From Escherichia phage PSa2, in sequence record OL770310: a DNA stretch of 64,000 nucleotides; one strand, 5' to 3'. The stretch's first letter is position 1. Each line of letters opens with the position of its first letter. The translations under genes were made by a program, and so were the position numbers. Below are positions 11,590 to 62,511 of the stretch, piece by piece. The notes under the pieces are model-generated. The model was not told the DNA's origin. It did no database searches and worked only from the letters and a program-made list of their open reading frames with translations.

Positions 11590-11625
11590 GCCAGGTTGCT
11601 AGTCGACCTGGCTTTTATTTTATTT
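11590..11625 (+). terminator. rho-independent terminator after nrdD
   Basis: Stem GCCAGGT/ACCTGGC with 9 nt loop, followed by TTTTATTTTATTT. Confidence 0.7.
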
Positions 11626-11652
11626 GCTTTCTAGCTAAAACTTATGTATAAT
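11624..11652 (+). promoter_or_regulatory. early promoter module (TTGCTT-N17-TATAAT)
   Basis: -35 TTGCTT 11624..11629, -10 TATAAT 11647..11652, then TGATTTATAAATTTGAGAGGAG leader and ATG at 11681. Confidence 0.65.
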
Positions 11653-11680
11653 TGATTTATAAATTTGAGAGGAGAAAGCT

Positions 11681-11962
11681 ATGAGTGAATTGCTTCCTAA
11701 AGTAGATGTTTCCCATCTTGGAGAGCCTAGTGAAGAACGTAAGGCTCTAGATTGGTTGGGCGGATTTGATTATCGTCGTGTTGTTGCAACATGGAATGAT
11801 AAGAAAGTTAAGAAGTTTCGGGTACATTATGTAGGTAAAGACAAGTGGCTCTGGATTGATTATGAAGAATCGAAGGGGTCTACTAAGGCTGTGAAAATTT
11901 ATCGTATGTATGGGTATTATTATGCTCACTGTGATAAGAATGAATTTACAGTACAGAACTAA
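11681..11962 (+). CDS. hypothetical protein
   Basis: 93 aa ORF directly behind a promoter/leader module. Confidence 0.5.
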   Translation: MSELLPKVDVSHLGEPSEERKALDWLGGFDYRRVVATWNDKKVKKFRVHYVGKDKWLWIDYEESKGSTKAVKIYRMYGYYYAHCDKNEFTVQN

Positions 11963-11971
11963 GGAACAAGA

Positions 11972-12175
11972 ATGAAAAACGTAAAACATCTCAAATATCG
12001 CTTAATTTACAACGGACGTATGGAAACAGAAGATCTAGCTCAGCTAGCGATCAATTCAGATGAAGTTACAGTTCGTGCTTTGTCCATCGAGAAGCTGCGT
12101 GCTTCTTACGAAAATCGTATTATGGAATTGGAGGAAAAACTTTATGGACTTCTTGAATCAGAATCTAAAAAGTAA
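11972..12175 (+). CDS. hypothetical small protein
   Basis: 67 aa ORF with SD-like AAGGAACAAG upstream. Confidence 0.35.
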   Translation: MKNVKHLKYRLIYNGRMETEDLAQLAINSDEVTVRALSIEKLRASYENRIMELEEKLYGLLESESKK

Positions 12176-12338
12176 TTTAGAAAATATGCTCATGGAGCAG
12201 TGGAATGCTGGGTATAATGCTGGAGTAGCTACCTGTATTGCTGGTTTGGATATGCTTATTAAGCAAGAGAAGGTTCGCCCAGAAGAAGCAATTCTGCTCC
12301 AAAATATCATCGAAGGATTCAAGCAAGGAATCGTATAA
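12144..12338 (+). CDS. hypothetical small protein (ORF track 12060..12338; internal Met with GGAGGAAAA SD preferred)
   Basis: ORF track; SD GGAGGAAAA 7 nt upstream of the ATG at 12144. Confidence 0.35.
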   Translation: MDFLNQNLKSNLENMLMEQWNAGYNAGVATCIAGLDMLIKQEKVRPEEAILLQNIIEGFKQGIV

Positions 12339-13152
12339 TGCGTAGACTAATCGTTGTTAGTGGTGCAGGTTTGAGTGTAGATAGTGGTGTTCGTGCTTTC
12401 CGTACTGATACTGCTAGTGGGAAATCCTTGTGGGATGAGTACGATCTAGAGGAAGTATGTAATATTCATGCCTTTCGTGGTAATTTTACCATAAAACTCA
12501 TATGTTTTACAACAAACGTCGTGAAGAGTTACAAACTGTTGAACCTAACCTAGCTCATTTGCGTATTGGTGAATGGTATAAACGGTATCCAAATCAAGTG
12601 GTAAACCTTACTACCAATGTTGATGATCTAATCGAACGTGCTGGAGTGCCGAGAGAAGATATACTCCATATTCATGGATATCTGAAAGAAATTATTGTAG
12701 AGCATGCGTTCGACCAGACACGTGATGTTATTGATATTGGGTATAGTTCTATTGATCCAGATGACTTTGATTGGGTTAAACCTAACGTTATCTTCTTTGG
12801 TGAGGTTGCTCCTGCCTATAAAACAATGTATGAGGTTTTTGATGGTATCACCAGTCATGATATGATCATCATTGTTGGGTGCTCTAACCAAGTAATTAAC
12901 TTCTACTGGGAGCTATTTCCTGTTCTGAATCTTACTGCTGCAAAACTTATGGTAGTTAACTATTACGATAGTGCAGTAGCTATGGAACCAGGCTATCAGG
13001 GCATGACTCGTAGTGAAATGTATCAGTTAGAAGAACGTGGTATTCCTTACTGGAGTAAAGGTGCTGTGGATGCCTTTAGTGATCCCGATTTTATTGCTCG
13101 TGTGGAAGCTCATCTAGAAGGTAAACCCTATGTTCAACAAAAGCATGTGTGA
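12338..13152 (+). CDS. Sir2-family (sirtuin-like) NAD-dependent protein, reading frame interrupted near 12484..12505
   Basis: Frame-2 ORF 12338..12553 carries VVSGAGLSVDSGVRAFR...SLW (sirtuin NAD-binding signature); frame-1 ORF 12502..13152 carries FYNKRRE..PNLAHL, TTNVDDLIERAG, HIHG, VIFFGE, IIVGCS. Halves overlap in different frames. Confidence 0.6.
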
Positions 13153-13312
13153 TCTTTTAGTGTGGCCGGATGGTAGTTGGTGCTACCGTTTCGAATTTGC
13201 TACCGATGATTTCTCATGGAAGAGTGATGATTTCTGTGTTATCTATGAAGATACAGCAGAATGGAAAGAGTTCCTTATTAAGGAGGGAGAATATGGTGAA
13301 GAAGATTTTTAA
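13130..13312 (+). CDS. hypothetical small acidic protein
   Basis: 60 aa ORF ending EYGEEDF; overlaps the Sir2-like stop. Confidence 0.35.
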   Translation: MFNKSMCDLLVWPDGSWCYRFEFATDDFSWKSDDFCVIYEDTAEWKEFLIKEGEYGEEDF

Positions 13313-13478
13313 GGGTATCTGGAAAGGTCTAGTATGGTTTGTCAACCTAATCGGTATGATTACCATTTATTCTCTGTTCCTATCTGTTATGTGGGGTAAA
13401 GGTGAGCTGAAGGTTCCAGTTCCTTTTACTGATGAAGTTAAAGTCTGGACGTGGGATGCTACTGGTGGAAATAAGTAA
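13293..13478 (+). CDS. small membrane protein (track ORF 13170..13478; SD-supported start 13293)
   Basis: AAGGAGGG SD then ATG; MVKKIFKGIWKGLVWFVNLIGMITIYSLFLSVMW has one clear TM helix. Confidence 0.4.
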   Translation: MVKKIFKGIWKGLVWFVNLIGMITIYSLFLSVMWGKGELKVPVPFTDEVKVWTWDATGGNK

Positions 13479-13971
13479 TACTCCTATAATTTTCCTGGAT
13501 ATTGATGGGGTGCTCAATTCGAGCATCTCTCACCATCATGCTCCAGATAGTGAAAAGCTATTCTTTGGTAGTGATTGGGTTTATAAGCCATTACTCCAGG
13601 CTTTTCAGAACTTCCTTAAACCTTCTCCAATAATGATTGTTGGGGTATCTTCATGGTTTTCTGTACGAAACGAGATGGAGAACGTCCAGATTATGACCGG
13701 ACTCGGTTTGATCGATCGTTTCCTTGGTACAACAGATTTTACTGGAGGTGGTTTATCTCGAGGTAATTCTGTCTTACGTTTCGTAGAAAAACATAAGCTC
13801 AAGCATTGGTGCGTCCTAGATGATGCTGGTGCTATGATGTACCAATTTCCTACTGTTATTGTAAATGGCAGGACTGGAATAAACCTTCAAGATTTAAATA
13901 CTATCAGCTATATGCTGGAATTTAGTCCAGATCTTGAAATGTGTAAGGCTCTTCAGAAACTCAAGGTGTAA
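13432..13971 (+). CDS. HAD-superfamily phosphatase (possible nucleotidase)
   Basis: HAD motif I IIFLDIDGVLN near the N-terminus; alternative start at 13456. Confidence 0.6.
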   Translation: MKLKSGRGMLLVEISNTPIIFLDIDGVLNSSISHHHAPDSEKLFFGSDWVYKPLLQAFQNFLKPSPIMIVGVSSWFSVRNEMENVQIMTGLGLIDRFLGTTDFTGGGLSRGNSVLRFVEKHKLKHWCVLDDAGAMMYQFPTVIVNGRTGINLQDLNTISYMLEFSPDLEMCKALQKLKV

Positions 13972-13973
13972 AT

Positions 13974-14402
13974 ATGTTCGATAATCTTTTCATGAAAGAG
14001 GTAAATCCTATGCTCCTCAACTTCTGGCGTTCTCTCCCTAATGGTATGTATAATGAAACCATCAATCTGCTCAAGATTTGGTGTGAGAATAACGATATCT
14101 TCTTATCCTTTAAAGGCCCACTAGAGGAAGCTCCGTGTATTGGAGTTAGCGTGGATTTAGGGGAGGGAGTAGAAGAGATTGTAGACTGGAAAGAACTCGA
14201 TGAAATGGGTCTGGTTTTTGCCTTGAACCATAAGCTGTTTATGCCTGCAAATCACCGTCTTATTGTAAATTATCGCACTGGTGAAGCTCCTGCTTTCCAG
14301 GTAAATGAACGTGAGGGCTGGTCATATTCGCCCGAGGAAGTAAATGAGGGGATTCAGAAACTTCGTCGTTTCGGGTATATGATCCCAGGTTTAACTGCTT
14401 AA
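13974..14402 (+). CDS. hypothetical acidic protein, paralogue A
   Basis: 142 aa; shares W.ELDEMGLVFALN...TGEAP.FQV...GYMIPGL with the next ORF. Confidence 0.6.
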   Translation: MFDNLFMKEVNPMLLNFWRSLPNGMYNETINLLKIWCENNDIFLSFKGPLEEAPCIGVSVDLGEGVEEIVDWKELDEMGLVFALNHKLFMPANHRLIVNYRTGEAPAFQVNEREGWSYSPEEVNEGIQKLRRFGYMIPGLTA

Positions 14403-14411
14403 GGAGGCAGA

Positions 14412-14807
14412 ATGGAACAAGTATTTTGGCGTCAGATAGATCCTAGTTTGGTAGAGCGTGCTGAGGGGCTCCTTGCACGTTGGTTGGGGGTTGACAAGGT
14501 TAGTGTAACATTTCCGTTTACTTCTGTAACAGACCCTAGTGTAGGTGTCTTTGTGGACGAAGATGAAGATGATGGTTGGGAAGCTGACTGGAATGAATTG
14601 TCCAGCATGGGCTTGATTGTTGCCCTCAACTTCTCTATATTCCACCCACGTGGTTTAGCTATTACACGTGATCCCGAAACCGGTGAATCCCCTTATCTTT
14701 TGCAAGTAGAAGATGATATTTGGGAGTACACCGAAGGTATTCTCGAAGAAGCTAAAGGTCAATTAAATCGTATTGGGATCTATGTCCCGGGCCTAAATGA
14801 TGATTGA
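14412..14807 (+). CDS. hypothetical acidic protein, paralogue B
   Basis: 131 aa, net charge about -19 by hand count; WNELSSMGLIVALN...TGESPYLLQV...GIYVPGL. Confidence 0.6.
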   Translation: MEQVFWRQIDPSLVERAEGLLARWLGVDKVSVTFPFTSVTDPSVGVFVDEDEDDGWEADWNELSSMGLIVALNFSIFHPRGLAITRDPETGESPYLLQVEDDIWEYTEGILEEAKGQLNRIGIYVPGLNDD

Positions 14808-14898
14808 TTTTCATTAGCTCAATCCTGATTACCGAGTCATTTTGGCTCGGTTTTCTCTGTGCTCAAAGACACTGATAGCACCTTCGGAAAAATTTTAC

Positions 14899-14927
14899 TT
14901 GCAGGATGCTCAAAATCTTGATATAAT
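14899..14927 (+). promoter_or_regulatory. early promoter module with no ORF behind it (TTGCAG-N17-TATAAT)
   Basis: -35 TTGCAG 14899..14904, -10 TATAAT 14922..14927, leader ATTTATATTGAATTGAGAGACATT; no start codon in the expected position. Confidence 0.5.
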
Positions 14928-15423
14928 ATTTATATTGAATTGAGAGACATTAGTAAAAATTGATTTTGCTAATTTTTCTTGTTTACAATCCGCAATACGG
15001 AACAGTTAGGCTGCCCCATTAAGGGTTGTTTTAACTATTACTAGTGTTTATACTGCATTAGTTAATTATCAATTAAGTGATCTGCGTACCCTGAATTCGG
15101 AAAGGTAAATCCAAACCGTGCATATTTAGCTCGTTATATAGGCAGAGCTTTATATGGGGGTGCGAACGAAAAGAGCAGCGAATGGTGACACGTCCAGTAG
15201 CCACCTACCAATAGGATAGTGAGGGCAATCAGAATCGGCTTAGCGGCCAATGACCTAGGTTCTGATCTGGATAAGAGTTAAGAGAGCGCAGCACTGAGGT
15301 ATGATAACTTATTCATACTGCTTGATGATGATTAATGTTTGTGTAAATGGTAGTAATAGTTGTTCTATTCTTTTGAATAGTCCTAAAGAAAGATATTCGA
15401 ATAACCAACATAGGAGTATTGTT

Positions 15424-18213
15424 GTGTTCTCAATCCTACAAGGCCACGCAGGATTTTCCAGAGATAAAGCTACTGGCATCTGGAAAGAGATCAAAGTGGA
15501 AGATTATACCTTTGCAAAGCGATTCTCTAAAGAGCATCCAGAAGGTAAACCAGCTTCCATGCCCTTCAAATTTGATGTACTTGAAGAACTTGACCCGCAA
15601 AACCTTGCTGAAATGTTACCTATCATGCGTCGTCTTACCAAAGACCCGCATATTGTAGCTATTCGGGGTAAATGTCTAGCTCCAAAAGATAATGTGCGTC
15701 GTACCAGGGGAAACTTTAACGTATCCAATCCTAGTCATATTATTGCTATGGACGTGGATGGTATTGTAGATACTGGTGGCTATGACAAGTTTAATCTTGT
15801 TGGCATGGCACGTCATATTATTAAGATGTTGAATAGTATTAGTGAGGATATGTTTCCTCTTGATGCAGGGTTTATTGCCCATGCATCGTCTTCGGCTGGG
15901 TTAAAACCAGGTATCCGAATGCACTTAATGCTAGAATCTAATGTCAAGGTAACGCAGGGACAGTTAAAGTTCTTATTTACATCTATCAATGATAGTAGTA
16001 AGCAAAAGTACGGCTTTGATATTGCTGACTTAGCTTATTATTCTTCTGTTCAGCTTCACTATTTCGCAGATCCCTTATTTGATGATGGTATAGTCGATCC
16101 GTTTAAAGCGGAGAATAAACCACGTCTTGTGTATGTTAAGGGTTCGAAGGTAAATCTACCTAATAACCTAGTTGACTTTGAAACAACTAGAGGTGAGTTT
16201 AAAGAAGAGTTCTACTCCTTACTTGACCAAATTAAAGGCAAGAAGGCTGCATCTGATAAAGTGGAAGAAACCATCAGCGAACTAGAAGAAGCTGAGGATG
16301 GAGTGTACCTGCGTATTATTCCAAAACTTTATCACAGAGCGTTAGAAGATGGTGTTGACTTTACGTGGTTAGAACGTGAGATTAAACCAGCTTTATCTGA
16401 GTATATTGCGACTAAAGATAATAGTCGTAATATTCAAGATTACTTTAATAACGGTCGTAAGCAGGCTCTCAAAGCCTTTGTAAATAACTCCAAACGTGAG
16501 ATTCCACCAAACTTAAAAGGTGTACCATTAAAACGTCTAGACACAGATTCTCCACCAGAAGTTCCATACCTGAAAATTAACATTGTACCACCAAAAGGAC
16601 ATTTAACATTTGTTAAGGCAAGTCTTGGTACGGGTAAAACTACAGCAGTAACTAAGTGGCTAGATGCAGGTGTTCTTCCAGGGAACTTTATTGCAATCAC
16701 AAATACTAGAGCACTTGTATCTTCTAACGCGAAGAAATTCGGTGCTGGCCAGTATGATAAGTCAGTTGATATGCTGAACTTCAAACGTGGTGCTATTGAT
16801 CGTATGTCTTCAACTATTCACTCTATCCATAAGTTCAAGAGCTTTGTGGGTCAGATTGATACGATCTTTATTGATGAATGTGACGCAGTAATGAATGATC
16901 TGTTATTCGCTCCGGTTGTTAAAAACCGTCGTGAATGTATTCAGGTTCTTCGTGATATCCTTATTACTGCTAAAACTGTTATCTTATCTGATGGTGATAT
17001 CAGTGCAGAAACGATTGAAGCCTATGGTTCTTTGATTGATTTTGATAAACCAGTTGCATTCTATAATCATCACCGTAAAATGCTGGCGAAAGCTCACGCT
17101 TATGAATTCCCTGACGAATCCAGTATTTGGGTTGCACTTCAAACATCTCTAGAGATGGGTGAGAAGTCAATCCTAGTATCTGACTGTGGACCAGATGAAC
17201 TGAATGAAAAGGGAATGGCGTTACGTCGTAATACTGGTGCGTTAGTTAAAGAAATTCACTCAAACTCTACGTCTGATATAGATATCCGACGTATTCTGGA
17301 TTATACAACTAATGAGCTAATTGATCAACAGATTGATTGTTTGTTATGTAGTCCATCTGTAACGAGTGGTGTTGACTTTAACTATTTTGATAACGTATTC
17401 GTAATCACTAGAACCTCAAACCAAGCGCCAAACATGCGTTTTCAAGCAATCAGGCGCGACCGTGGTGCTCAGAACATTTATTATTTTATTGATAAATCTA
17501 CGAGTGGATTCTCTGCGGGTTCCGAGCAATATAATATTGACGAGGGTTGGATTGAGTTAGCTCAGCAACTGTACGCACGCCGTCGTGAGCTGGAATCTAG
17601 AAACTATACTAGTACTTTGCGCTATTATCTGCTTGATCAGGGTGCAACTATCGATATTTTCAGCGAAAGCTGGGGAACTATCGAAGGTGCAGGAAAAGAG
17701 TATACAGAAGAGCGAATCAAAGCTATTTTGCACTCAACTCCTGAATATTGTGCACCACGTCATGCAGATGCCTATGAAGCCAAGTTACTTCTGGTTCGCT
17801 ATTATCATCTGGATTCTATTAAAGATGTAACAGTGGAACACGTTGAACAGTATATCAAGGATAAACCAAACGATAGAGCTGCATTCTTCCATAAGATGCA
17901 CGAGATGTTCTGGGAAGATATTAAGAAGTGTTCAAATGTAACAATCAAACCGTTTATTGAAGCTCTTAAGAATAAGAAGAAGGATTTCTTCCTTAAGACA
18001 GGTCAGAGCGCTAACCCAAAATATGCTCGTATGTATCTTGGCATGATGGGTATCGGTAAAGATCTGGATACGGAAAAGATTGTGGACTGGTACAGAACTT
18101 ACTGTAAGATCGAATGTATGCCGATTCCAGTTAAGTTTATGACAGATGAAGAACGTCAGATGCATGAGGAAGCTCTTGCTGAATTGGGGGCTAGAAATGA
18201 CAGCGAAGAATAA
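15424..18213 (+). CDS. SF2 helicase, replication-origin-binding-protein type (ORF track start 15301; GTG 15424 with TAGGAG SD preferred)
   Basis: Walker A KASLGTGKTTAV, Walker B IFIDECDAV; ~930-970 aa. First ~40 track codons are low complexity. Confidence 0.7.
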   Translation: MFSILQGHAGFSRDKATGIWKEIKVEDYTFAKRFSKEHPEGKPASMPFKFDVLEELDPQNLAEMLPIMRRLTKDPHIVAIRGKCLAPKDNVRRTRGNFNVSNPSHIIAMDVDGIVDTGGYDKFNLVGMARHIIKMLNSISEDMFPLDAGFIAHASSSAGLKPGIRMHLMLESNVKVTQGQLKFLFTSINDSSKQKYGFDIADLAYYSSVQLHYFADPLFDDGIVDPFKAENKPRLVYVKGSKVNLPNNLVDFETTRGEFKEEFYSLLDQIKGKKAASDKVEETISELEEAEDGVYLRIIPKLYHRALEDGVDFTWLEREIKPALSEYIATKDNSRNIQDYFNNGRKQALKAFVNNSKREIPPNLKGVPLKRLDTDSPPEVPYLKINIVPPKGHLTFVKASLGTGKTTAVTKWLDAGVLPGNFIAITNTRALVSSNAKKFGAGQYDKSVDMLNFKRGAIDRMSSTIHSIHKFKSFVGQIDTIFIDECDAVMNDLLFAPVVKNRRECIQVLRDILITAKTVILSDGDISAETIEAYGSLIDFDKPVAFYNHHRKMLAKAHAYEFPDESSIWVALQTSLEMGEKSILVSDCGPDELNEKGMALRRNTGALVKEIHSNSTSDIDIRRILDYTTNELIDQQIDCLLCSPSVTSGVDFNYFDNVFVITRTSNQAPNMRFQAIRRDRGAQNIYYFIDKSTSGFSAGSEQYNIDEGWIELAQQLYARRRELESRNYTSTLRYYLLDQGATIDIFSESWGTIEGAGKEYTEERIKAILHSTPEYCAPRHADAYEAKLLLVRYYHLDSIKDVTVEHVEQYIKDKPNDRAAFFHKMHEMFWEDIKKCSNVTIKPFIEALKNKKKDFFLKTGQSANPKYARMYLGMMGIGKDLDTEKIVDWYRTYCKIECMPIPVKFMTDEERQMHEEALAELGARNDSEE

Positions 18214-18430
18214 AAAGTGGGAAACAAGGAAGTTTCCCGTAAAAGAACGTAAAACTTCTGTTTACGATACTGCGGAGAAACTATGTAGGGTTGTACCACC
18301 TCGTCTCGCTGGCATCCCTAACGTCTCCATATGGTTACTTAAACAACGGAAGACTCGTGTGTCTCTTCGCATTGGCTTTGAGTTAGATAAAGTCTATGCT
18401 GAACTTGCTTCTTTGCTCAAAGAATCATAA
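18197..18430 (+). CDS. hypothetical small basic protein (track ORF 18146..18430)
   Basis: ORF overlapping the helicase stop; MTAKNKKWETRKFPVKERK... Confidence 0.3.
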   Translation: MTAKNKKWETRKFPVKERKTSVYDTAEKLCRVVPPRLAGIPNVSIWLLKQRKTRVSLRIGFELDKVYAELASLLKES

Positions 18431-18439
18431 AAATTTTAT

Positions 18440-18468
18440 TTGCTTTCAGGAAAAATTTTCTGTATAAT
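18440..18468 (+). promoter_or_regulatory. early promoter module (TTGCTT-N17-TATAAT)
   Basis: -35 18440..18445, -10 18463..18468, leader AGATTCATAAATTTGAGAGAGGAG, ATG 18500. Confidence 0.65.
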
Positions 18469-18499
18469 AGATTCATAAATTTGAGAGAGGAGTTTAAAT

Positions 18500-19204
18500 A
18501 TGGCTGGTTCTCGTAGAAAGAAACTTATCCATGAAATCCCTGATGAAACCTTTAAAAAGGTTATTGAACATTTGGAGAATGGTGGTACTAAGAAAGCAGC
18601 ATGTGAAATGCTCGGTGTTTCTTCTAACCCAACTATGGAACGAATGATTGAAGAATGGAGAGATCGTCAGGTTCAGGTTGCGGAAATGAAAAAGAAGAAG
18701 CGTGGAACACTGATTGAAGGTGTTGAGCTTGCAAACGTAATTGAACAGTATCTTTCTGGTGATTCTTTTGAAGAAATCGCAGATCGTAATTATCGTTCTG
18801 TAGCGATGATTAAATCTGTTCTGGAACGTTATGGTGCTCTGCTTCGTTTAAACGATATTGTTGATCCATTGAATCCACCGCTGATTCCTGATGATGCAAT
18901 GGCAGAAGAATTTGAAGTTGGAGAACTTGTTTGGGTTCCTGGCTATCAGTGTATTGGTGAAATCAAGAAAGCAATGACTAATCCAGTTGGCTGCTATCGT
19001 GTTTGGTTGTTATCAGAAGGTAAACAACAGAACGTTCACTATATGCACTACGAATTAGCTTCTGTTAAACATCTGGAAAAGCTGGGTGTTGATGTTAAGG
19101 CTCTGGGCTTTAAGTGGAGTCGTGAAGAAGTTATCACGTTGGTTAATGAAGCTGTTAAAGCTGCCCTGAAACTAGATAAAGAGAAAGGAAAACGTCGTGA
19201 GTAA
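18500..19204 (+). CDS. putative HTH DNA-binding protein
   Basis: 234 aa; N-terminal helix-turn-helix (HTH)-like segment GGTKKAACEMLGVSSNPTMERMIEEW. Confidence 0.55.
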   Translation: MAGSRRKKLIHEIPDETFKKVIEHLENGGTKKAACEMLGVSSNPTMERMIEEWRDRQVQVAEMKKKKRGTLIEGVELANVIEQYLSGDSFEEIADRNYRSVAMIKSVLERYGALLRLNDIVDPLNPPLIPDDAMAEEFEVGELVWVPGYQCIGEIKKAMTNPVGCYRVWLLSEGKQQNVHYMHYELASVKHLEKLGVDVKALGFKWSREEVITLVNEAVKAALKLDKEKGKRRE

Positions 19205-19451
19205 ACTAACTGATCTGTTAAAAGCTGGAGACGTAAAATATCTCCAGCGAGATAGCTGGGAAAATAATGCCTATTCTACCACTATTATCAAAGTAGATGT
19301 TGATAATAATGACATCATAGAATTTACTTGGTGGTGGTCTAAAGATGGGCGTACTAAACTCACGCTAGACGATGCATCGTGGAAAACCACTGAGCTAACT
19401 CTAGACGAAGCTCTGGCCGACGATTGGGAGATCGTTGAACTAGATGTGTAG
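19197..19451 (+). CDS. hypothetical protein
   Basis: 84 aa ORF, start overlapping upstream stop. Confidence 0.45.
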   Translation: MSKLTDLLKAGDVKYLQRDSWENNAYSTTIIKVDVDNNDIIEFTWWWSKDGRTKLTLDDASWKTTELTLDEALADDWEIVELDV

Positions 19452-19471
19452 CAGTTACTGAAAAATTTCAG

Positions 19472-19500
19472 TTGCTTAATCCTGTAATTCTTGATATAAT
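19472..19500 (+). promoter_or_regulatory. early promoter (TTGCTT-N17-TATAAT)
   Basis: -35 19472..19477, -10 19495..19500; ATG at 19559. Confidence 0.6.
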
Positions 19501-19558
19501 ATTCTCATAGTTTGAAAGAACTATTCTGTTTAATTCTTAATTAAGGAAATCGAAAAAT

Positions 19559-19969
19559 ATGACTACTCCAACTCAGTGGACTGATGAACTGTTCGAAAAA
19601 ATGTCTTCCGACTACGTTGCTCGTATGGAGCAATTCCCAGAAGATGAGCGTCCGGGCGTTAGCATGGAAATTGTTAGCGAAATTGCTCAGGAAAATGGTG
19701 TAACTCCGAACGGTTTCCGTATGAAGCTGACCAAAGCAGGTCTGTATATCAAGAAAGCTGCTGGCTCTACTTCTAAATCAAGCGCATCTACTGGAGAAAA
19801 AGCTTCTGGTGGTTCTCGTACTTCCAAAGCTCAGGCTCACTCCGATCTTCGCTCTGCATTCTCTGATGCTGGCTTAGCCCCGGACTTCCTGGACGACGCA
19901 ATCATCGACAAGCTGACCGGTAAAGCAGCTGCTCATCTGGCAGAAGCTATCCGAGCTATCACTAAGTAA
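19559..19969 (+). CDS. hypothetical protein with one HTH-like repeat, host-like codon usage
   Basis: SEIAQENGVTPNGFRMKLTKAG matches the repeat unit of the 22695..23462 protein; CTG/CGT/GGT-rich codons. Confidence 0.55.
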   Translation: MTTPTQWTDELFEKMSSDYVARMEQFPEDERPGVSMEIVSEIAQENGVTPNGFRMKLTKAGLYIKKAAGSTSKSSASTGEKASGGSRTSKAQAHSDLRSAFSDAGLAPDFLDDAIIDKLTGKAAAHLAEAIRAITK

Positions 19970-20005
19970 TTCTTAGATAAATCCACCAACACAAGGAATA
20001 CAGTT

Positions 20006-20302: not shown

Positions 20303-20312
20303 GAAACCAATT

Positions 20313-20340
20313 AGCCCCTATATGGGGCTTTTTGTGTATT
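20313..20340 (+). terminator. rho-independent terminator
   Basis: AGCCCC-TATAT-GGGGCT hairpin followed by TTTTGTGTATTT. Confidence 0.6.
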
Positions 20341-20352
20341 TGGGATATGTAA

Positions 20353-20661: not shown

Positions 20662-20680
20662 TTCTTGGCTTTTTCTTTAT
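20646..20680 (+). terminator. rho-independent terminator overlapping stop codon
   Basis: AGCCAAGAA...TTCTTGGCT stem followed by TTTTTCTTT. Confidence 0.6.
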
Positions 20681-20688
20681 AAATGTAC

Positions 20689-20717
20689 TTGCTTTAGACT
20701 CAGTTTTGTTATATAAT
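20689..20717 (+). promoter_or_regulatory. early promoter module (TTGCTT-N17-TATAAT)
   Basis: -35 20689..20694, -10 20712..20717, leader ATTTATATAAATTGATGAGAGAT, ATG 20749. Confidence 0.65.
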
Positions 20718-20748
20718 ATTTATATAAATTGATGAGAGATATAAATAA

Positions 20749-21720: not shown

Positions 21721-21770
21721 TTCGTAACCCTTTGCTACCCGTTTACCATGTCGGAATTATAAAGTGGTTA

Positions 21771-21799: not shown

Positions 21800-21863
21800 A
21801 TTATCATTCAGTTGAGGGATAGAAAGTTATGGCGAGGGTAAGCAAAGTTAGTTAAAATTGTAG

Positions 21864-21892
21864 TTGCTAAATGCTTAAATACTTGCTATAAT
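21864..21892 (+). promoter_or_regulatory. early promoter module (TTGCTA-N17-TATAAT)
   Basis: -35 21864..21869, -10 21887..21892, leader ATTTATATAAATTGATAAGGAAG, ATG 21920. Confidence 0.6.
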
Positions 21893-21919
21893 ATTTATAT
21901 AAATTGATAAGGAAGAAAT

Positions 21920-23462: not shown

Positions 23463-23479
23463 TCTGGTAAATTAAACCT

Positions 23480-23511: not shown

Positions 23512-23544
23512 GCATTTAGAAGGCACGAAAGCGTGCAAAGGAGA

Positions 23545-25017: not shown

Positions 25018-25904
25018 GTAGAATAACAGAACTACTTGATCTGAAAGGCATTGAATACAAAGACACAGGTGGGGATATCCTCATCTGTTGTCTCAATCCA
25101 GATCATGATGATAAACACCCAAGCTTGCGTATTGACCCTGAATCAGGTATTATGCATTGCTTGAGCTGTGGCTTCGGTAGAGGAATACCGAGCATTTACC
25201 ATTATTTTAATGAGACTCAGTACAGACAGTCACCAAGATTGTCTCAAGTACGTAAAAAGATTTCAGAGATTAGGAATGGATCTACGAATCTTGCAATTCC
25301 TGAATCTGCTTACCTTTTCGAAGGTGATTTCCGAGGTATCAGTTCTAAGACCTTGAAGAAATATTTTGCTTTCCAACATCAAGCAGACTGGGAAGGCAGA
25401 ATTGTATTCCCAATAACAGATGCTGTTGGACGCAATATCCTATTCTTGGGACGTTCTATAAACAGTTCTGCCCCTCCTAAATACTTAGTAAAACCAAAAC
25501 AAGTTTCACCACCGATTTTCCCTGTACGATATAATACACCAGTTCTTATTCTAGTTGAAGGTATCTTTGATATGTTAAATCTAGAAGATAACGGTGTAGA
25601 TTATGCTTCTTGCTGCTTTGGTACACATCAGTTTACATCTGATAACATTGCCGATAAGTTCAGTCCTTACATTATTGCTGGAGTAAGAGTAGTAGTTATC
25701 CTATTAGATAATGATGCCTCTGGTAATAAAGCTGCGCAAGCATTGGCGAAGCTAATTCGTACAAAAACACGTTTAACACCTGTAATTGGTAACTTCCTTC
25801 TTCCAGAAGGCAAAGACCCAGGTGATTTAAATAAAGAAGAGATCGATATGTTGGCTCAACGTATTGAAATTTTAGTTGCCGAATCGCTCAAAGATTTGGT
25901 ATAA
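25014..25904 (+). CDS. DNA primase (zinc-finger/TOPRIM type)
   Basis: Zn-binding CCLNPDHDDKHPS...HCLSCG, TOPRIM-like LILVEGIFDM and VVILLDNDASG; ATGA overlap with the helicase. Confidence 0.8.
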   Translation: MSRITELLDLKGIEYKDTGGDILICCLNPDHDDKHPSLRIDPESGIMHCLSCGFGRGIPSIYHYFNETQYRQSPRLSQVRKKISEIRNGSTNLAIPESAYLFEGDFRGISSKTLKKYFAFQHQADWEGRIVFPITDAVGRNILFLGRSINSSAPPKYLVKPKQVSPPIFPVRYNTPVLILVEGIFDMLNLEDNGVDYASCCFGTHQFTSDNIADKFSPYIIAGVRVVVILLDNDASGNKAAQALAKLIRTKTRLTPVIGNFLLPEGKDPGDLNKEEIDMLAQRIEILVAESLKDLV

Positions 25905-25966
25905 TATATTGGTAAGTTAGAGAAGAAACACTGAAGTTATACTTACTTACCAAAAGGAGACTAAAT

Positions 25967-29024: not shown

Positions 29025-30373
29025 AGGTTGTTATATCTAATAAAGCCTATTTCAAGCCCGATGATGAACTCTGGGATTACTGTAGTAAGCAAACCACTTA
29101 TCACATCGAGACAATGACTAGTAAATACCCTATTATGTATAAGAATAGTGGTGTTGTTGCTAAAGAGATTAAGTGGATTCCTATTACGCGTCTGGATTTA
29201 CTAGATGCTAAGGGAGTAAAGTACGAATTAGTTGATAAACGTACGTTAGCTCCGGTAGAAATACCAGAACCTCAGTTCAAACTGCGTGAAGAAGATCAGC
29301 TTCCTATATATGAAGAGTGTGATGATACTTGTATTATCAATGGTAAGCCTGGGTTTGGTAAAACTATCCTAGCTCTTGCTCTTGCATATAAGTTTGGCCA
29401 GAAAACTCTGGTAATCTGCACCAACACATCCATTCGTGAAATGTGGGCTGCAGAAGTTCGTAAATGGTTTGGGTTTGAACCTGGTATTATTGGCTCTGGG
29501 AAGTATAATATTGATCCACCAATCGTGGTCAGTAATATACAAACAGTGAATAAACATGCGAATAATCTTTCTAAAGTGTTCGGTACTGTTATAGTTGATG
29601 AAGTACACCACTGTGTGGCTACAACTTTCACTAATTTCCTAGAGATCTCATGTGCTCGCTATAAGATTGGTCTATCTGGTACGTTAAAGCGTAAGGATGG
29701 CCTGCAAGTTATGTTCAAAGACTTCTTCGGATATAAGATCTTTAGTCCACCCGTTAATAATACTGTTCCACCTACAATCCATAGGTACTCCGTGCCTGTT
29801 GAGTTATCAGGTAACCAAAACGTACCCTGGGCATTACGTGCTAACGATGTGTATAATCATCCTGAATATCGAGAAACTATTATAAACCTAGCGCATTTAT
29901 ATGTGTCTATGGGACATAAGGTTCTCTTTGTAAGTGATAGGACGGAACTAATCCAAACAATACTAGAAGCTCTCGCACAACGTGGTGTTACAACCTATGA
30001 GATTATAGGTGCAACTCCTTTGGATGATCGATTGAGAATCCAGAAAGATGTAGCGGAGGGCGGACCTTGTGTACTTGCAGCAGCTCAGAGTATCTTCTCA
30101 GAAGGTATTTCTCTTAACGAGCTGTCTTGTTTAATAATGGGAAGTCTCATTAATAATGAATCTCTCATAGAACAGTTAGCAGGCCGCGTTCAACGTATTG
30201 TTGACGGAAAGCTAGATCCGATTGTTGTAGATTTAATTATGAAAGGAGGTACTGGTTTAAGACAGGCTTCTGGACGTATGGCCGTGTATCGCAATAATGC
30301 ATGGAAAACTATTACTATGACTCCGGAGAAAGCAGTACAATTAGCTAAAATTGCATTTGGCAACTGCTCATAA
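29021..30373 (+). CDS. SF2 DEAD/DEAH-box helicase
   Basis: Walker A NGKPGFGKT, DEAH-like box VIVDEVHH, motif III-like SGT. Confidence 0.8.
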   Translation: MKVVISNKAYFKPDDELWDYCSKQTTYHIETMTSKYPIMYKNSGVVAKEIKWIPITRLDLLDAKGVKYELVDKRTLAPVEIPEPQFKLREEDQLPIYEECDDTCIINGKPGFGKTILALALAYKFGQKTLVICTNTSIREMWAAEVRKWFGFEPGIIGSGKYNIDPPIVVSNIQTVNKHANNLSKVFGTVIVDEVHHCVATTFTNFLEISCARYKIGLSGTLKRKDGLQVMFKDFFGYKIFSPPVNNTVPPTIHRYSVPVELSGNQNVPWALRANDVYNHPEYRETIINLAHLYVSMGHKVLFVSDRTELIQTILEALAQRGVTTYEIIGATPLDDRLRIQKDVAEGGPCVLAAAQSIFSEGISLNELSCLIMGSLINNESLIEQLAGRVQRIVDGKLDPIVVDLIMKGGTGLRQASGRMAVYRNNAWKTITMTPEKAVQLAKIAFGNCS

Positions 30374-30456
30374 TTATTGTATAATATACACATAAATTTG
30401 AGAGAGAAAGTTTCGGATTGATAAGAAAGTCCGAAGCAGAAAAATAAAAATTGTAC

Positions 30457-30486
30457 TTGTCAAATCCTCCCGATTTAATGTATAAT
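30457..30486 (+). promoter_or_regulatory. early promoter module (TTGTCA-N18-TATAAT); a -10/leader copy without -35 sits at 30380..30410
   Basis: -10 TATAAT 30481..30486, leader ATATATACATAAATTGATGAGAGAC, ATG 30516. Confidence 0.55.
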
Positions 30487-30515
30487 ATATATACATAAAT
30501 TGATGAGAGACAAAA

Positions 30516-54529: not shown

Positions 54530-54540
54530 TTATTTTTCCC

Positions 54541-54567
54541 AATAAAAAAGGAGAGCCGAAGCTCTCC
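54541..54567 (-). terminator. terminator after major capsid gene with UUCG-loop hairpin
   Basis: Minus strand GGAGAGC-TTCG-GCTCTCC then TTTTTTATTGGGAAAAATAA-ATG. Confidence 0.65.
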
Positions 54568-54588
54568 TTATCGGCTGAAAAGCCTGTA

Positions 54589-55965
54589 TTAAGATGCAGC
54601 GTAAGCACCAGATACAACGCCGTTTTCGAAGTAACGTTGCAGGTTAACACGCTGAGTAACGTAGTATGCGTCACGCTGTTTGCCAGCTTGGCGCTCACGT
54701 TCAACAGTAACAGCACGCTGACGCGGCATTACGAAGTTATCTTTGTAAACAATAACTGCGAATTCTGCAGAAGCAGCTTTAGCTGGGAAATACTCAGAAA
54801 CTACAACCGGCAGACCGTAAATACGACCAACCTGACCTTGCAGTTTAACAGCATCGTTACCAACCTGGGCAACATCCTGCCATTCTTCATCTTCCAGCAG
54901 ATCGTAGTAAGCATCCATAGATACGATCAGTACCAGTTTGCTCAGTTTCAGACCATGACGGCCCAGTTTACGACGCAGCTTGGAGATAGTCTTAGCAGTT
55001 ACCAGAACAGAACCGTCAGCTTTAGCTTCGGTAACAACCTTAGCACCATCATCAGCAGCCAGTTTCAGCAGACCCTTAGGCTGACCAGTACCATTACCAG
55101 ACATGAAAGCTTCTTCGATAGAAACAGCGTGTGCTTCGATCAGACGCTTACGCAGCAGAGGCAGCAGGGAGAAGATTGCATCTTCTTCAGTTTCATCAGT
55201 GATGAAGGATTTAGCAGCCAGCTTGTAAGTTTTGAAGCTGATTTCAGTCAGTTGACCTTTAACTTCGTCACCAACAGTTTCGTCAGTACCGAATTTGGAA
55301 GCATCTACCCAAGTAGCGCGACCAGCTTCTGGTTCAACGAGCATAGTAAGGATTTTGCTGGACATTGGCAGTTCATCGAACAGTGCACCAACTACCAGTT
55401 CCTTCTGCAGGTCACGAATAATACGGGTAGAGAAGATAGTTTCGTATGCTTCGCTAGACATGGAAACGGAAGAAGAACCGTTAACAGCTTTAATGTGAGC
55501 CTTACCATGTTCAGTTTCGAATACGTCTTTCTCCATCATATAAGACAGAAGAACCAGTTTCTCAACTTCATCTTCGAAAGCATCCTGAGTGCCATAAAGA
55601 GCTTTAGCTACGCTATCACCAACGAAGGAACGACCTTCACGAGCTGCCAACAGAGACTTGATTTCGTCCTGAAGACCAACGATGGTTTCCTGTTGCTTTT
55701 CTACAGTCTGTGCAAACAGTTCTGCGCTCTTCTTAGACTTCTCATCCAGGTTCTTAACCAGATCCAGAGCTTCTTCCAGACGCTTACGGTCTTCACCAAC
55801 AGCTTTAGATACTAGGTCGTTCATACGAGCCAGTTCTTTTTCTTCCTGCTCTTCACGCAGACGCTTAGCTTCCGCAGCTTTCTGAGCAGCGGTCAGACCT
55901 TCCAGAGATTTAGCCAGATCACCCAGACCAAGTTCTTCCTTCAGCTTATTAATATCAATAGTCAT
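54589..55965 (-). CDS. major capsid protein (HK97-fold type)
   Basis: 458 aa; N-terminal scaffold-like coiled coil; strongly host-like codon usage; followed by a strong terminator. Confidence 0.85.
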   Translation of the reverse strand: MTIDINKLKEELGLGDLAKSLEGLTAAQKAAEAKRLREEQEEKELARMNDLVSKAVGEDRKRLEEALDLVKNLDEKSKKSAELFAQTVEKQQETIVGLQDEIKSLLAAREGRSFVGDSVAKALYGTQDAFEDEVEKLVLLSYMMEKDVFETEHGKAHIKAVNGSSSVSMSSEAYETIFSTRIIRDLQKELVVGALFDELPMSSKILTMLVEPEAGRATWVDASKFGTDETVGDEVKGQLTEISFKTYKLAAKSFITDETEEDAIFSLLPLLRKRLIEAHAVSIEEAFMSGNGTGQPKGLLKLAADDGAKVVTEAKADGSVLVTAKTISKLRRKLGRHGLKLSKLVLIVSMDAYYDLLEDEEWQDVAQVGNDAVKLQGQVGRIYGLPVVVSEYFPAKAASAEFAVIVYKDNFVMPRQRAVTVERERQAGKQRDAYYVTQRVNLQRYFENGVVSGAYAAS

Positions 55966-58315: not shown

Positions 58316-58839
58316 TATAAGAACCTTGCGAATCCTGATTTAGTTTCAGTCTTGACTTGTGTCTTTTCTTGAGGATTCTGTAGCTTTTCCTTTTGTTTAA
58401 GAACCCATGCCTTCTGCTTATTAGCAGAGAAAAGGGGAGGTTCTTTAGTGTACACCTTATGTAATAGTTGGTGATGGTGGACACAAAGGGTAACAGTGTC
58501 GTCTACTAGCTCATGCCTATATCTTTCATAGAATGCCGTCCTATTTGAGAGGACTGTTTCTTCGTTAGTGAAATCCAACTGGAGTTCTTTAGCAAATTTT
58601 TTAACTAGTAGAGACACTGTATGGTAATGATGAAGCTCTAATTCTTCACCACAACCACAGATTTCGCAGCGATCGGCTTTTTTATATTGACTTTTTATAC
58701 CGTCTCGCATGAGTGATATAGCATCACGTTTATATTTTACATTTCCTGCCACAGTATTCTCCTCAACTGTATGAATATAGTATACATAATCATGTCGAAT
58801 TTGTAAAGGGGATTTTAAAATGCAGGAATGGGATACCAA
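58315..58839 (-). CDS. HNH endonuclease-like protein
   Basis: CEICGCGEELELHHYH...N...LCVHHHQLLH: Cys/His pattern of the HNH motif. Confidence 0.6.
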   Translation of the reverse strand: MVSHSCILKSPLQIRHDYVYYIHTVEENTVAGNVKYKRDAISLMRDGIKSQYKKADRCEICGCGEELELHHYHTVSLLVKKFAKELQLDFTNEETVLSNRTAFYERYRHELVDDTVTLCVHHHQLLHKVYTKEPPLFSANKQKAWVLKQKEKLQNPQEKTQVKTETKSGFARFL

Positions 58840-58866
58840 CTGAGTAGTATCCCATCCTATACTTAT

Positions 58867-60183
58867 TTATTTCCCACGGGAAATTGAGTAAATTCCATAA
58901 CGCAGTGCGTCACAAAGGTGAGAGTTCGCATCATGACGTGGTTTTTCACGTGATAATTTCTCTTCGCCTTCCTGGAAGTCCCACTTGTAGTTCGCTAGGG
59001 CGTGGATCAATGAGGTACATGAAGCATCTACGATGATCTTGCCTTGCTGGAACAGTGCTTGCAGACATGCCAAACCATCTAGGACAGATTTCTTAGCAGG
59101 TGCAGAAGCGATTTCATGTTCATATGCTAAGTCCTGACGGAACTGAGCAGCAGCGGAGTCTACAAATATACGATCAACATTATAACGATCTATGCAGTGT
59201 TGGATATAAGCAGCGTGTTGAGCTGTAGTCTTTTCAGCTTGCTGATATTCTTCCAGTACGTAATAAACATCTTCATCGTAGTGATACTTAATAGTAAGAA
59301 CTGCTGTAGGATCACGATAACCAACGTCGATACCAAGTAATGTTTCGAATGCCTCATCATCTTTAAAGAAGTGACGCATACCTTTAAGGTCTTTAACATG
59401 CTCGATAGCATTGAAGGTATCAAAGATCTGACCTTCGAATACAGAGAAGTCAGCCTCATATTCTTGACGGAAGTAGTTTTTACTAACAGTACGACGAGCT
59501 TCCTCGATATCGTTTAGGTCAGCACGTGGGTTATCACGATACGTACCATGAATAGATACCCAGTTAGGTAACGTTTCATTAAATCCTTTTTCGTAGAACT
59601 CTTTGAACCAGTTACCACCACGAGGTGTAGAAATAAATAGAGCTTTAGAGTTTGGTTTATCTAGGGTAGGACGTAACTGAATATCGAAAGCTGCACCACC
59701 AACATCGGAAATAGCTGCTTCGTCAAAAATGATGAAGTCATAGGAACGACCAACCGCGGAGTCAGCCTGGGCCGCAGAAGCTAGTTTAAAGAGAGAACCA
59801 TTTGCTAGTTCAATCTCTTTATCTTTTGCGTTCTCACGTTCAGTCTGTAATCCATACTTCTTAATAAGACCACGAATCTGTGACCAACCTATGTTAGCCA
59901 GTGAGTAGTTAGGTGCAACTACTAGCACCTTCACATTGGGTTCCAGAAGTTTTAAGAACCCAAGAGTATATGCGATGAACGACTTACCTACACGACGTGA
60001 TACACATGCGGTCACGAAACGGTGTCTTGGGTCTTCCAATGCATTAATAATTGCAATTTGAGGGGCATTAGGTGTAATTCCCTCTTGTGCTAGGATGCTA
60101 GAGACTGGTAGACGAAAGAATCGTTTGTCAATACCAAAGTCAATAACATCTGTGGTGTTAATATAGTCTCTAGAGACTTTCAT
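58867..60183 (-). CDS. terminase large subunit
   Basis: ATPase Walker A-like ACVSRRVGKS and Walker B DFIIFDEAA; C-terminal nuclease-size region; 438 aa. Confidence 0.85.
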   Translation of the reverse strand: MKVSRDYINTTDVIDFGIDKRFFRLPVSSILAQEGITPNAPQIAIINALEDPRHRFVTACVSRRVGKSFIAYTLGFLKLLEPNVKVLVVAPNYSLANIGWSQIRGLIKKYGLQTERENAKDKEIELANGSLFKLASAAQADSAVGRSYDFIIFDEAAISDVGGAAFDIQLRPTLDKPNSKALFISTPRGGNWFKEFYEKGFNETLPNWVSIHGTYRDNPRADLNDIEEARRTVSKNYFRQEYEADFSVFEGQIFDTFNAIEHVKDLKGMRHFFKDDEAFETLLGIDVGYRDPTAVLTIKYHYDEDVYYVLEEYQQAEKTTAQHAAYIQHCIDRYNVDRIFVDSAAAQFRQDLAYEHEIASAPAKKSVLDGLACLQALFQQGKIIVDASCTSLIHALANYKWDFQEGEEKLSREKPRHDANSHLCDALRYGIYSISRGK

Positions 60184-60665
60184 TATCTCTTACCTCCTCC
60201 TGCTAGAGCAGTAATAAGATTCATATAGTTTTCGTCACCACTTCCAGCAATAATATTATTCTGAATGTTAGTCTGGTTAGCCGGAGTACGGGCTGCTGCC
60301 TTCACTTTCTCCAGTTCTACCATCATTTTCATTTCTTCCATTTTCATCTTGTGCGCCTTCCAGAGAATATCCATGATATCCTGGTCAGAGCCCATGCCAG
60401 TTTCTTCGAGTTCTTCCAACTTGCGCTTGATAACTTCATCAAGAACCCCAAACAAACGGTCGCGATTACGGAAGCCACTTTCCATAAAGATATCGTTAAG
60501 ATAGTTTTTAACTTCCCCACGATTCATTATATCACGAAATGCAATCTCGGACATCCCAAGACTACGAGCAGCGGCAGGAACATCACTACCACACTGTAAA
60601 TAGGCTTCAATAACATCCATGCCTTCGGGAGACATGAGATCAGGAACTAATACATCATTTGCCAT
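60183..60665 (-). CDS. putative terminase small subunit / DNA-binding protein
   Basis: 160 aa with HTH-like [17 protein letters not shown]; ATGA-coupled to the large subunit. Confidence 0.5.
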
Positions 60666-60675
60666 ATATCCTCCT

Positions 60676-62457
60676 TTAGGTTAGGCGTTGAACTGTTACA
60701 CGTAGTCTTGGTAAGAAGATAGCAGCTGCTTCGGCAGCATGGATAATAACGCCTAACTCAACGTTACCATTACCAAGGTTTTTTACTGTATAAATATACC
60801 CATTTCTACGAAAAGCCATCTCATCAGGTCTACTAGCCCACGTTTGGGTATAGCTATATGAAGTTGTACTGTGATATGGTACTAGATAGCCAGGTGGCAG
60901 AGTAAGAATCTGATGAAATACACCATCACCAGCTGTATAACTTTGTTGACGTCTACCTTGTACCTGCCAAGCACTACCCCCATAAGTACGCACAGGCATT
61001 CCAGCAGTATTAAGATTACCCATAATAACTTCAGTAGTTAATATAACAGTAGAGTGAGCATTTGGTAATCCCAACCAAACTGTGGCCAAAGGTGTGTAGA
61101 AGTCACCAGCACCAGGGTAGGATGGAGTTATATCATCCCCAACATAAGTACTCGCAACGTTGCCTGGGAATAATCTAAGTGGTACGGTACTAGGACTCCA
61201 TACAGGGCCATGCTCATTACCTATAGAGTTGGTATTAGTATCTACATACCACTGTTTACCAACACCAAATTTATAAAGGCTAATTTGAGAAGCAGCACCC
61301 CCATAGTTAACAGGAGACCACAAACCCCCATTACTAGAGCCGATAAATTCACATCGTGCAGTATTATCACCAAAAACTCCGGTATACGCGGTATTATTAC
61401 CAACATACTCCATATCAGGGCGATAACCTAAGTTTCCAAAAGCATTCTGGTTAATAAATTTATAGCCTGAGTTGGGTAAGCTAACACCTTTAATAGTAAA
61501 GTTAGATGGAGATATCAGGATATCTGAACCAGTAAATGGATTACCAGAAATCCCCATACTACCATTAGAATAGCGTAGATTTAGCACATACCAAATAACT
61601 TTAGTAGGTGTAACATTATACCAGTCTTGCACATATACCTTTCTAGCTGACTGAGCAGCCATATTAGAAGTAGAACCTCTACAAACATATATTTTTTCTG
61701 GATATGCAGGAGATTGGTAAAGAACGTTTACGTTATCTGGTAGTACACCTTTTTTACCGGCAAAGCCACGAATATTGGAACTACAAACGTAAAACCAATC
61801 ATGACCTCTACCAGCAGACCCGATAGGCGCTTGCCAGTTAGGCTCCCAATAGTCTGCATTACCACCATCTATAGGAACTGTAGATACACCCGTTGGAAAG
61901 CCCATTAATCTCCAGGCTCTGGAAATAGCTTCACCAGCAGAAACACCACCAGGTCTAAAGATCTGGAAACCGGAAGATTGTAGCAAAGTACCGCCAGTTC
62001 CTTGTCTAGCAATAGATTCCTCATGACCTAGGCTACCATTATAAATATAGGTACCATGAGCTAAACTATCCCCGATTGCAAAGGCAGATGTTATTGCCAA
62101 TTCAGCACCCGCACGTGGTTGGTCTTCAAAGAATGTTAAAAACTGGCCAACCTGAGATTGTGTACCATTAAGGAAACCCCTATGAGTACCATTTATCTCA
62201 ATAGCAGTTAATATAACTCTACCAGGATCATTGGATTTAATGTTTATAATATCCCAAGGCATCTGAGTAACAAAGTACCCATTACCTGCATCACCTAGGG
62301 CAGCCTCATAAGTCCCATCAACTAGGACGAAGGGCATATCTGAGTGGAAGATACTATTAGTATTTGGAGAGTAGTGCTGATTTATATCACCACCATTAGC
62401 AGCGTTTAGAGATAATACAGTTTTACCATCACTAAATTTTCCTGCGAAAAAACTCAT
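60676..62457 (-). CDS. receptor-binding protein (pb5-like), receptor unknown
   Basis: 593 aa Gly/Asn/Tyr-rich protein heading the late operon, divergent from a lipoprotein gene as for oad/llp in T5-like phages (recalled). Confidence 0.55.
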
Positions 62458-62482
62458 ACAATCTCCTTCTTTAAAAATGTAT

Positions 62483-62511
62483 TTGCTTAGATCCCTCTAT
62501 TTTGCTATAAT
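62483..62511 (+). promoter_or_regulatory. early promoter module for lipoprotein gene (TTGCTT-N17-TATAAT)
   Basis: -35 62483..62488, -10 62506..62511, leader ATATTTATAAATTAAACAGAGGAAC, ATG 62541. Confidence 0.65.

Follow-up and report, generated by a model that had tools for sequence, protein, structure and literature searches.

Recurrent promoter modules of Escherichia phage PSa2 very probably belong to the T5 early promoter family, including two copies not directly followed by a start codon

The DNA analysed in this work, hereafter the window, is a stretch of 64,000 nucleotides of Escherichia phage PSa2 (sequence record OL770310), and the element under study is a short promoter and leader module that is repeated along it. 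From position 11000 to 31000 the window was 98.9% identical over 20 kb to Escherichia phage EPS7 (Demerecviridae, Epseptimavirus) and collinear with hundreds of T5-like phages; judged by this similarity, it is part of a T5-like, EPS7-like phage genome. The early genes form two blocks, at 1–36.5 kb and beyond 62.5 kb, and the structural (late) genes occupy 36.8–62.4 kb. ARAGORN detected 0 tRNA and 0 tmRNA genes in the window. The EPS7 record annotates coding genes only and no promoters; the T5 record AY543070 includes 75-bp promoter features, many of them with historical names. A first-pass annotation of the window had listed at least eight plus-strand copies of the module and a minus-strand copy serving phoH, and it had considered that two of the plus-strand copies, at 14922 and 30380, had no gene behind them.

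The TATAAT hexamers of the eight plus-strand copies were found to start exactly where they had been placed (11647, 14922, 18463, 20712, 21887, 30380, 30481 and 62506), and the minus-strand phoH copy was confirmed, with its -10 element at 9434–9429. The weight-matrix search that had been proposed as a check was run across the window with a matrix built from these nine copies. It yielded six further sites, with -10 elements at 19495(+), 25900(+), 1095(-), 1446(-), 2852(-) and 5835(-) and scores of 19–37 bits, to be compared with a top score of 5.9 bits in 30 shuffles. So, the positions given at first were right, while the list fell short as an inventory, the window containing at least 15 early-type copies. 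When a matrix of the 15 sites was used in leave-one-out mode, 14 of them scored 28–56 bits, the top shuffle reaching 16.6 bits; the exception was 30481, which its longer spacer shifts out of alignment with the matrix. The count expected above threshold in shuffles was 0. All 15 copies were located in the early blocks and oriented as their genes, and the matrix scan gave no early-type copy in the late block at 36.8–62.4 kb. The recurrence of the module is real and non-random. The idea that AT-rich intergenic DNA produced the matches by chance can draw on the 60% A+T content of the genome and on a TTGNNN-N17-TATAAT arrangement at 17305, antisense inside obp and with no A-tract, which looks fortuitous; given the distance between the best shuffles (5.9 or 16.6 bits) and the real copies (19–56 bits), and the way in which strand and position track gene organisation, it can practically be dismissed.

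The correspondence of the copies with T5 was studied by aligning each 75-bp T5 promoter feature to the window; in what follows, scores are local-alignment scores of 75 and fractions of 75 are identities. The copies aligned to annotated T5 promoter features that precede the orthologous genes, the match of 2852(-) being weak. On the minus strand, the copy at 1065..1131 (-10 1095–1090, predicted +1 around 1083, ATG at 1051; 31.7 bits) is the ortholog of P-H207 (score 65, about 70/75), and the one at 1416..1482 (-10 1446), with an ORF downstream at 1135..1413, is the ortholog of the T5 promoter 46337–46411 (score 65). The copy at 2822..2888 (-10 2852; 19.5 bits) precedes an ORF at 2238..2816, an HslV-like peptidase in EPS7, and is the one that matched weakly, to T5 promoter 46937. 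The nrdB promoter at 5805..5871 (-10 5835; nrdB 4653..5798) corresponds to T5 50061–50135. The phoH promoter at 9404..9470, with a leader of about 58 nt before a GTG at 9364, matched the T5 phoH promoter 53638–53712 (score 67, about 71/75), in agreement with the gene assigned to this copy in the first-pass annotation.

On the plus strand, the copy at 11611..11677 (-10 11647, ATG 11681) comes directly after the nrdD terminator hairpin and corresponds to the T5.100 promoter 55708–55782 (score 55). The P-N25 ortholog occupies 18427..18493 (-10 18463, predicted +1 18475, ATG 18500; 73/75), and the published PN25 sequence, taken from a strain-construction paper (PMC4447248), equals window 18428–18494. 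Next come the P-N26 ortholog at 19459..19525 (-10 19495, ATG 19559; 37.1 bits, score 65), the ligA promoter at 20676..20742 (-10 20712, ATG 20749; T5 65284–65358, score 67), the P-K28a ortholog upstream of ligB at 21851..21917 (-10 21887; 75/75), and the ortholog of the DNA polymerase promoter Ppol at 25864..25930 (-10 25900; score 70), those of P-N26 and Ppol having been absent from the first list. The promoter of a homolog of the lytic-conversion lipoprotein gene (llp/lpp), at 62470..62536 (-10 62506, ATG 62541), was diverged (score 31). The remaining three copies, upstream of D2/obp and in the P31A/P31B pair, are described below. A promoter of a different type, P-K28b, lies just upstream of P-K28a at 21751–21825; it has TTGACA/TATACT elements and is 75/75 identical to T5.

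T5 promoters N25, N26, K28a and H207 are known to be used early by the RNA polymerase of E. coli or Salmonella, and P_N25, a very strong early promoter, is the "T5 promoter" of expression vectors. For Ppol, early use in vivo was shown by primer extension (PMC7472727), and a consensus has been published for the T5-like phage AKFV33, with 32 copies per genome: TTGCTw, 17–18 bp, TATAATA, AAAAATT at -43 and TAAATT at +1 (Niu et al. 2012, PMC3326045). The module is, then, already known: it is the T5 early promoter family, whose members are very strong. The first description of it, as an early promoter that recurs along the window with a ribosome-binding site in its short leader, is borne out by the orthology to the promoter features of AY543070.

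Concerning the architecture of the module, the core elements in the copies were an A-tract AAAATT, a -35 of TTGCTT type, a spacer of 17–18 nt, TATAAT, an AT-rich discriminator and (A)TAAATT(T)GA..GAGAG. TATAAT and the TTG of the -35 were present in 15 of 15 copies, and the spacer was of 17 nt in 13 and of 18 nt in 2. Just 5′ of the -35, around -43, an A/T block was found with the consensus tttAAAAtTt (0.9–1.4 bits per position). The discriminator started with AT in 13 of the 15 copies; those of other promoter classes in the window were different, with AGTAGTC in the nrdD promoter (9673) and CACGCGC in the one at 9575(-). An ATATT discriminator is shared by all the known T5 early promoters (Klimuk et al., PMC7472727). 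In the same paper the N25 oligonucleotide TATAATAGATTCAT covers -12 to +2, and this numbering puts +1 at the A of CATAAATT (the A of ATAAATT), 12 bases past the first T of the -10, at 18475 in the N25 ortholog. With the start site so predicted, TAnnnT was in register in 12 of the 15 copies and TAAATT itself, at +2 to +7, in 8. In 11 copies a start codon came 21–32 nt past +1, with GAGAG or GAGG 7–11 nt ahead of it.

It was claimed in the first-pass annotation that the GAGAG(G) of the conserved leader segment ATAAATTTGAGAG serves as the ribosome-binding site. This stood as far as the overlap with the Shine-Dalgarno sequence goes, but not as a full account, since the segment begins at the transcription start and is also initially transcribed sequence. 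The stricter possibility that it is kept purely for translation, as ribosome-binding site or enhancer, and is not a promoter part, would fit the spacing between GAGAG or GAGG and the start codon in the 11 copies just mentioned. However, the leader sequence is retained in P31A (30380) and in the copy at 14922, neither of which has a start codon after it, with ATAAATTTGAGAGAG and ATTGAATTGAGAGA conserved across clades, and TAAATT, the most conserved stretch, is too far 5′ for any Shine-Dalgarno position. These two facts indicate that the conservation is not due to translation only. Moreover, in the N25 literature the initially transcribed sequence is seen as a determinant that controls promoter escape (PMC12464699). 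An exclusively translational role is, on balance, improbable.

The interpretation that best accommodates these observations is that host sigma-70 RNA polymerase would read the module as a T5-like (Demerecviridae) promoter of the early class. The A-tract at about -43 may act like an UP element, and the discriminator, whose usual AT start has been published as a mark of this class, may have a role in early timing, as the literature suggests for both. Transcription would start at A and proceed through AUAAAUU(U)GA..GAGAG, an initially transcribed sequence rich in purines and A/T, which in most copies would merge into the Shine-Dalgarno sequence; promoter, escape region and translation start could form a single unit of about 70 bp, repeated before each early operon. 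By all the sequence comparisons made, it is very probable that the module is a T5-type early sigma-70 promoter and that the two copies lacking a start codon are promoters like the others, placed in rarer contexts.

Several points weigh against this interpretation, or against its full extent. GAGAG was absent or altered in the copies 1095(-), 5835(-), 9434(-), 19495 and 25900, and the downstream part of the module, its leader, varies much more than the core, so that GAGAG is a tendency and not a fixed element. As to the role of the transcribed region, work of the Bujard and Hsu laboratories on P_N25, and also that of Kammerer et al. in 1986, is said to have found that the transcribed part affects both promoter clearance and translation. 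The role proposed here leans on that work and on its citation in PMC12464699. Finally, what was directly observed is of the order of sequence, statistics and orthology to annotated T5 promoters, and it is from the orthology that the start sites and the early timing in this phage are predicted.

The two copies at 14922 and 30380 were described at first as having the leader and no start codon, which is literally true for the sequence right after each leader; it does not follow that there is no gene behind them. The copy at 30344..30410(+) (-10 30380, predicted +1 around 30392; score 64) is the ortholog of P31A. It is followed 101 bp downstream by P31B, at 30445..30511(+) (-10 30481, spacer 18 nt; diverged, score 38), and then by an ATG at 30516. 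Both promoters are named in the T5 record, and the tandem arrangement, with a near-invariant spacer, was found in 28 of 30 related genomes, a single promoter being present in two more distant phages. As read from the sequence, 30380 stands first in a conserved tandem of promoters and is not an orphan. The terminator scan gave no terminator-like site at 30200–30700, and a terminator-bounded small RNA was not recognized downstream of P31A. Since there is no terminator between P31A and P31B, transcripts from P31A most likely read into the ORF at 30516. The spacer contains a conserved 10-bp hairpin at 30410–30437, followed by an A-rich run; in this hairpin only single, non-compensated changes were seen, with no covariation for or against it. 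Regarding the ORF behind P31B, it starts with ATG at 30516 in the window and in EPS7-like phages, and the position is ATT in the T5-type loci L044–L064; the annotated start of T5.125 is about 80 nt further downstream.

Another tandem pair was observed upstream of phoH. A second promoter lies there at 9541–9609(-) (-10 9575), with TTGCCA-17-TATAAT and a G+C-rich discriminator, and its T5 counterpart is annotated at 53776–53850. The 9575(-) and 9434(-) elements are 141 bp apart, and the first member is without a start codon.

The copy at 14886..14952(+) (-10 14922, predicted +1 14934) matched the T5 promoter 58999–59073, upstream of T5.108 (score 67, about 71/75). A terminator was predicted before it, at 14831–14851, by the terminator scan. 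A generic promoter and terminator scan missed this promoter because its TTGCAG matches TTGACA at only 3 of 6 positions. The gene that it would serve is D2/obp (15424..18213(+)), which encodes a UL9-like bipolar helicase ("replication origin binding protein") and starts with a GTG at 15424, 490 nt downstream; in T5 this gene lies about halfway along the genome (59.5 of 121.7 kb). No terminator 3′ of the promoter was found within 14700–15600, and a small RNA bounded by a terminator was not recognized at this locus either. The second hairpin of the leader ends in UUUU only, and that run is part of a long-range helix.

The same order of elements, an early-type promoter, 480–760 non-coding nt and then the helicase gene, occurred in all nine T5-like clades sampled, down to 58% helicase identity. 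This bears on the possibility that 14922 and 30380 are decaying remnants of lost genes, which might be thought of because neither leader has a start codon behind it. Against such decay are the conservation of the tandem pair and its spacer in 28 of 30 genomes, the presence of the 14922 promoter with its ORF-free leader in nine of nine clades, and the covarying helices described in the following paragraphs; the remnant explanation is thus highly unlikely. On sequence evidence, the 14922 copy is no orphan but heads a long D2/obp leader that is conserved and structured.

The leader itself (14934..15423(+), 490 nt) is ORF-free, conserved and folded. No credible ORF was found in the window leader, and no ORF was shared by the interval upstream of obp across four diverged clades. 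Among closer clades, about 110 nt at the 5′ end and about 85 nt at the 3′ end were nearly invariant, and the roughly 300 nt between them kept length but not sequence. The predicted structure starts with a 5′ hairpin at about 14942–14980(+) and a conserved hairpin AUACGGAACAGUUAGGCUGCCCCAU at 14994–15020(+). Long-range closing helices follow (15032–15041/15353–15362, 15046–15050/15344–15348, 15055–15063/15330–15338 and 15076–15087/15286–15295, all on the plus strand); they are among those best supported by covariation, and together make a composite closing stem of about 24–34 bp around a domain of about 330 nt. Inside this domain there is an invariant CUUAGCGG hairpin at 15237–15248(+), within the helix 15229–15236/15258–15265, also among the best supported.

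The fold was much more stable than that of shuffled sequences (z = -4.9). In a three-clade alignment, 20 of 102 predicted pairs were compensatory, versus 0–3 with the partners slid. In a six-clade alignment, 48 of 80 pairs changed on both sides, versus 10–20 in slid controls and 0/500 in shuffles. The CUUAGCGG sub-domain was compared across clades through individual folds, and seven clades kept the hairpin with seven different sequences of the outer helix. The comparison of strands favoured the transcribed one (alifold, -61.1 versus -45.7 kcal/mol; 420 G-U versus 9 A-C cells), an argument that is partly circular, the structure having been predicted on that strand. The leader thus combines the lack of a conserved ORF, a stable fold, compensatory changes across lineages and sequence conservation, on which grounds a conserved, structured leader RNA is taken to be the product of the 14922 promoter. 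The resemblance of AUCAGAAUCGGCUUAGCGGCC to ACAGAAnnCGGCUUA, which is conserved in bacterial RNase P RNA, was also considered, and rejected: there was no Rfam match to RNase P, and the covariation corresponded to a local hairpin and not to a long-range pairing of P4 type.

With Rfam 15, no family reached the gathering score in the window; the leader, at a cut-off of E ≤ 10, and three diverged homologs, at E ≤ 5, gave no relevant match. In a search of IMG/VR, AUACGGAACAGUUNGGCUGC, the motif of a second, invariant hairpin of the leader, occurred once per genome and in T5-like contigs only. The searchable literature yielded no description of the leader and no transcriptome or transcription-start map of T5. 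Taking these results together, we would give even chances to the claim that the 14922 promoter drives an apparently uncatalogued structured RNA of about 490 nt (480–760 nt in relatives), present once per genome, seen only in T5-like phages and located just upstream of D2/obp. This RNA may be the sole new item of the present analysis.

Some variation was observed upstream of obp. In the relatives L016, L018 and L029 a different promoter is joined to the leader at the identical sequence GAGAGACATTAG; in L020 both promoter-plus-hairpin units are in tandem; and in L019, L022 and L036 there is a 97-nt insertion between leader hairpins 1 and 2. So, it can be said that the promoter and first hairpin behave cassette-like at this locus. 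Promoter-early-stem-loop (PeSL) elements are repeated cassettes of an early promoter and a stem-loop in T4-type phages. By analogy, the repeats of the window might be mobile regulatory cassettes, in which promoter and 5′ hairpin act as recombination sites that shuffle or duplicate genes, with the orphan copies as scars. The promoter swap, the tandem units and the insertion at obp speak for it, as does the replacement of the P31A/P31B pair by a single promoter in two more distant phages. On the other hand, the copies are orthologous, fixed in position and strongly conserved between T5 and the window phage, and the paralogous copies are alike only at positions relevant to RNA polymerase, which fits functional selection better than recent copying. 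Mobility would anyhow supplement the promoter function and not replace it. As an explanation of the repeats, mobile cassettes therefore seem rather unlikely, and the T5-type early promoter remains the preferred reading of the module.

What the leader RNA might do can be framed in three ways. Cleavage of the closing stem by RNase III could set free a stable RNA; the leader could regulate in cis the synthesis of the helicase; or the folded transcript could prime or activate a replication origin beside the initiator gene. Neither iterons nor marked direct repeats were found in the leader, only short, unconvincing repeats, which argues mildly against a classical origin. To our knowledge, no origin of replication of T5 has ever been delimited in its sequence, and how T5 controls the dosage of its early genes is, as far as we know, poorly understood. 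A large conserved RNA before the gene of a putative replication-initiator helicase provides a concrete object for testing.

Other observations concern sites and genes outside the set of 15. A weaker candidate promoter, at 8249–8315(-) (-10 TAGAAT at 8279, 27 bits), was detected upstream of nrdA, where no T5 promoter is annotated. It falls within 5905..8295, an ORF that was called mechanically, and this points to a true nrdA start further downstream. That ORF has 796 aa and is uninterrupted in the window; in EPS7 (53274–55795) an HNH gene adjoins an nrdA that is split or shortened. The window, EPS7 and T5 differ in their homing endonuclease genes: T5 has hegH, hegI and hegJ (49536–50060, 62318–62836 and 69614–70147), and hegI and hegJ are not in the window. 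In the late block, a promoter-like site at 58754–58820(-) has TTTACA/TATACT elements (-10 TATACT at 58784) and an early-style start region, ATATTCATACAGTTGAGGAG; its 19.7 bits are barely over the best shuffle (16.6). The late promoter P-G25 is conserved at 45692–45765(-) (score 69 of 75) and carries TTAAGAGGAGAAATTAACTATG, which is very similar to the synthetic ribosome-binding site of the T5-promoter expression vectors.

As a promoter, the module adds nothing new; the use of the analysis is to show that one simple matrix suffices to recover the whole early set, copies overlooked at first reading among them, most deposited T5-like genomes, EPS7 included, being without promoter annotation.

The systems with which these elements can be compared are of different kinds. 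The leader RNA admits two analogies. In rRNA precursors and in the early mRNA sites of T7, stems cut by RNase III likewise enclose a structured RNA within a long-range helix, a parallel that is offered for the leader only. In transcript-primed origins, such as those of ColE1 (RNA II) and T4 (oriF), a strong promoter is likewise followed by several hundred structured, non-coding nt, and the leader adjoins a putative initiator helicase gene. Compared with both, the leader has no sequence or Rfam similarity to them, and no iterons were found in it. With the PeSL cassettes the module shares repeated early promoters with an adjacent stem-loop, and swapping and duplication were seen at the obp leader. 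It differs from them in that the T5 modules are positionally stable between genera, and no evidence of flanking mobile gene cassettes was obtained here. The paper on AKFV33 makes no mention of tandem pairs or of promoters with long non-coding leaders (PMC3326045); all the elements of its consensus are identical to those of the window module. With respect to the T5 early promoters, the phage studied here belongs to Epseptimavirus, and its P31B and lpp promoters have diverged (scores 38 and 31). Otherwise the window promoters have the same sequences, genomic positions and downstream genes as those of T5, with the A-tract at -43, TTGCTT, the 17-bp spacer, TATAAT, the ATATT-type discriminator and the ATAAATT start.

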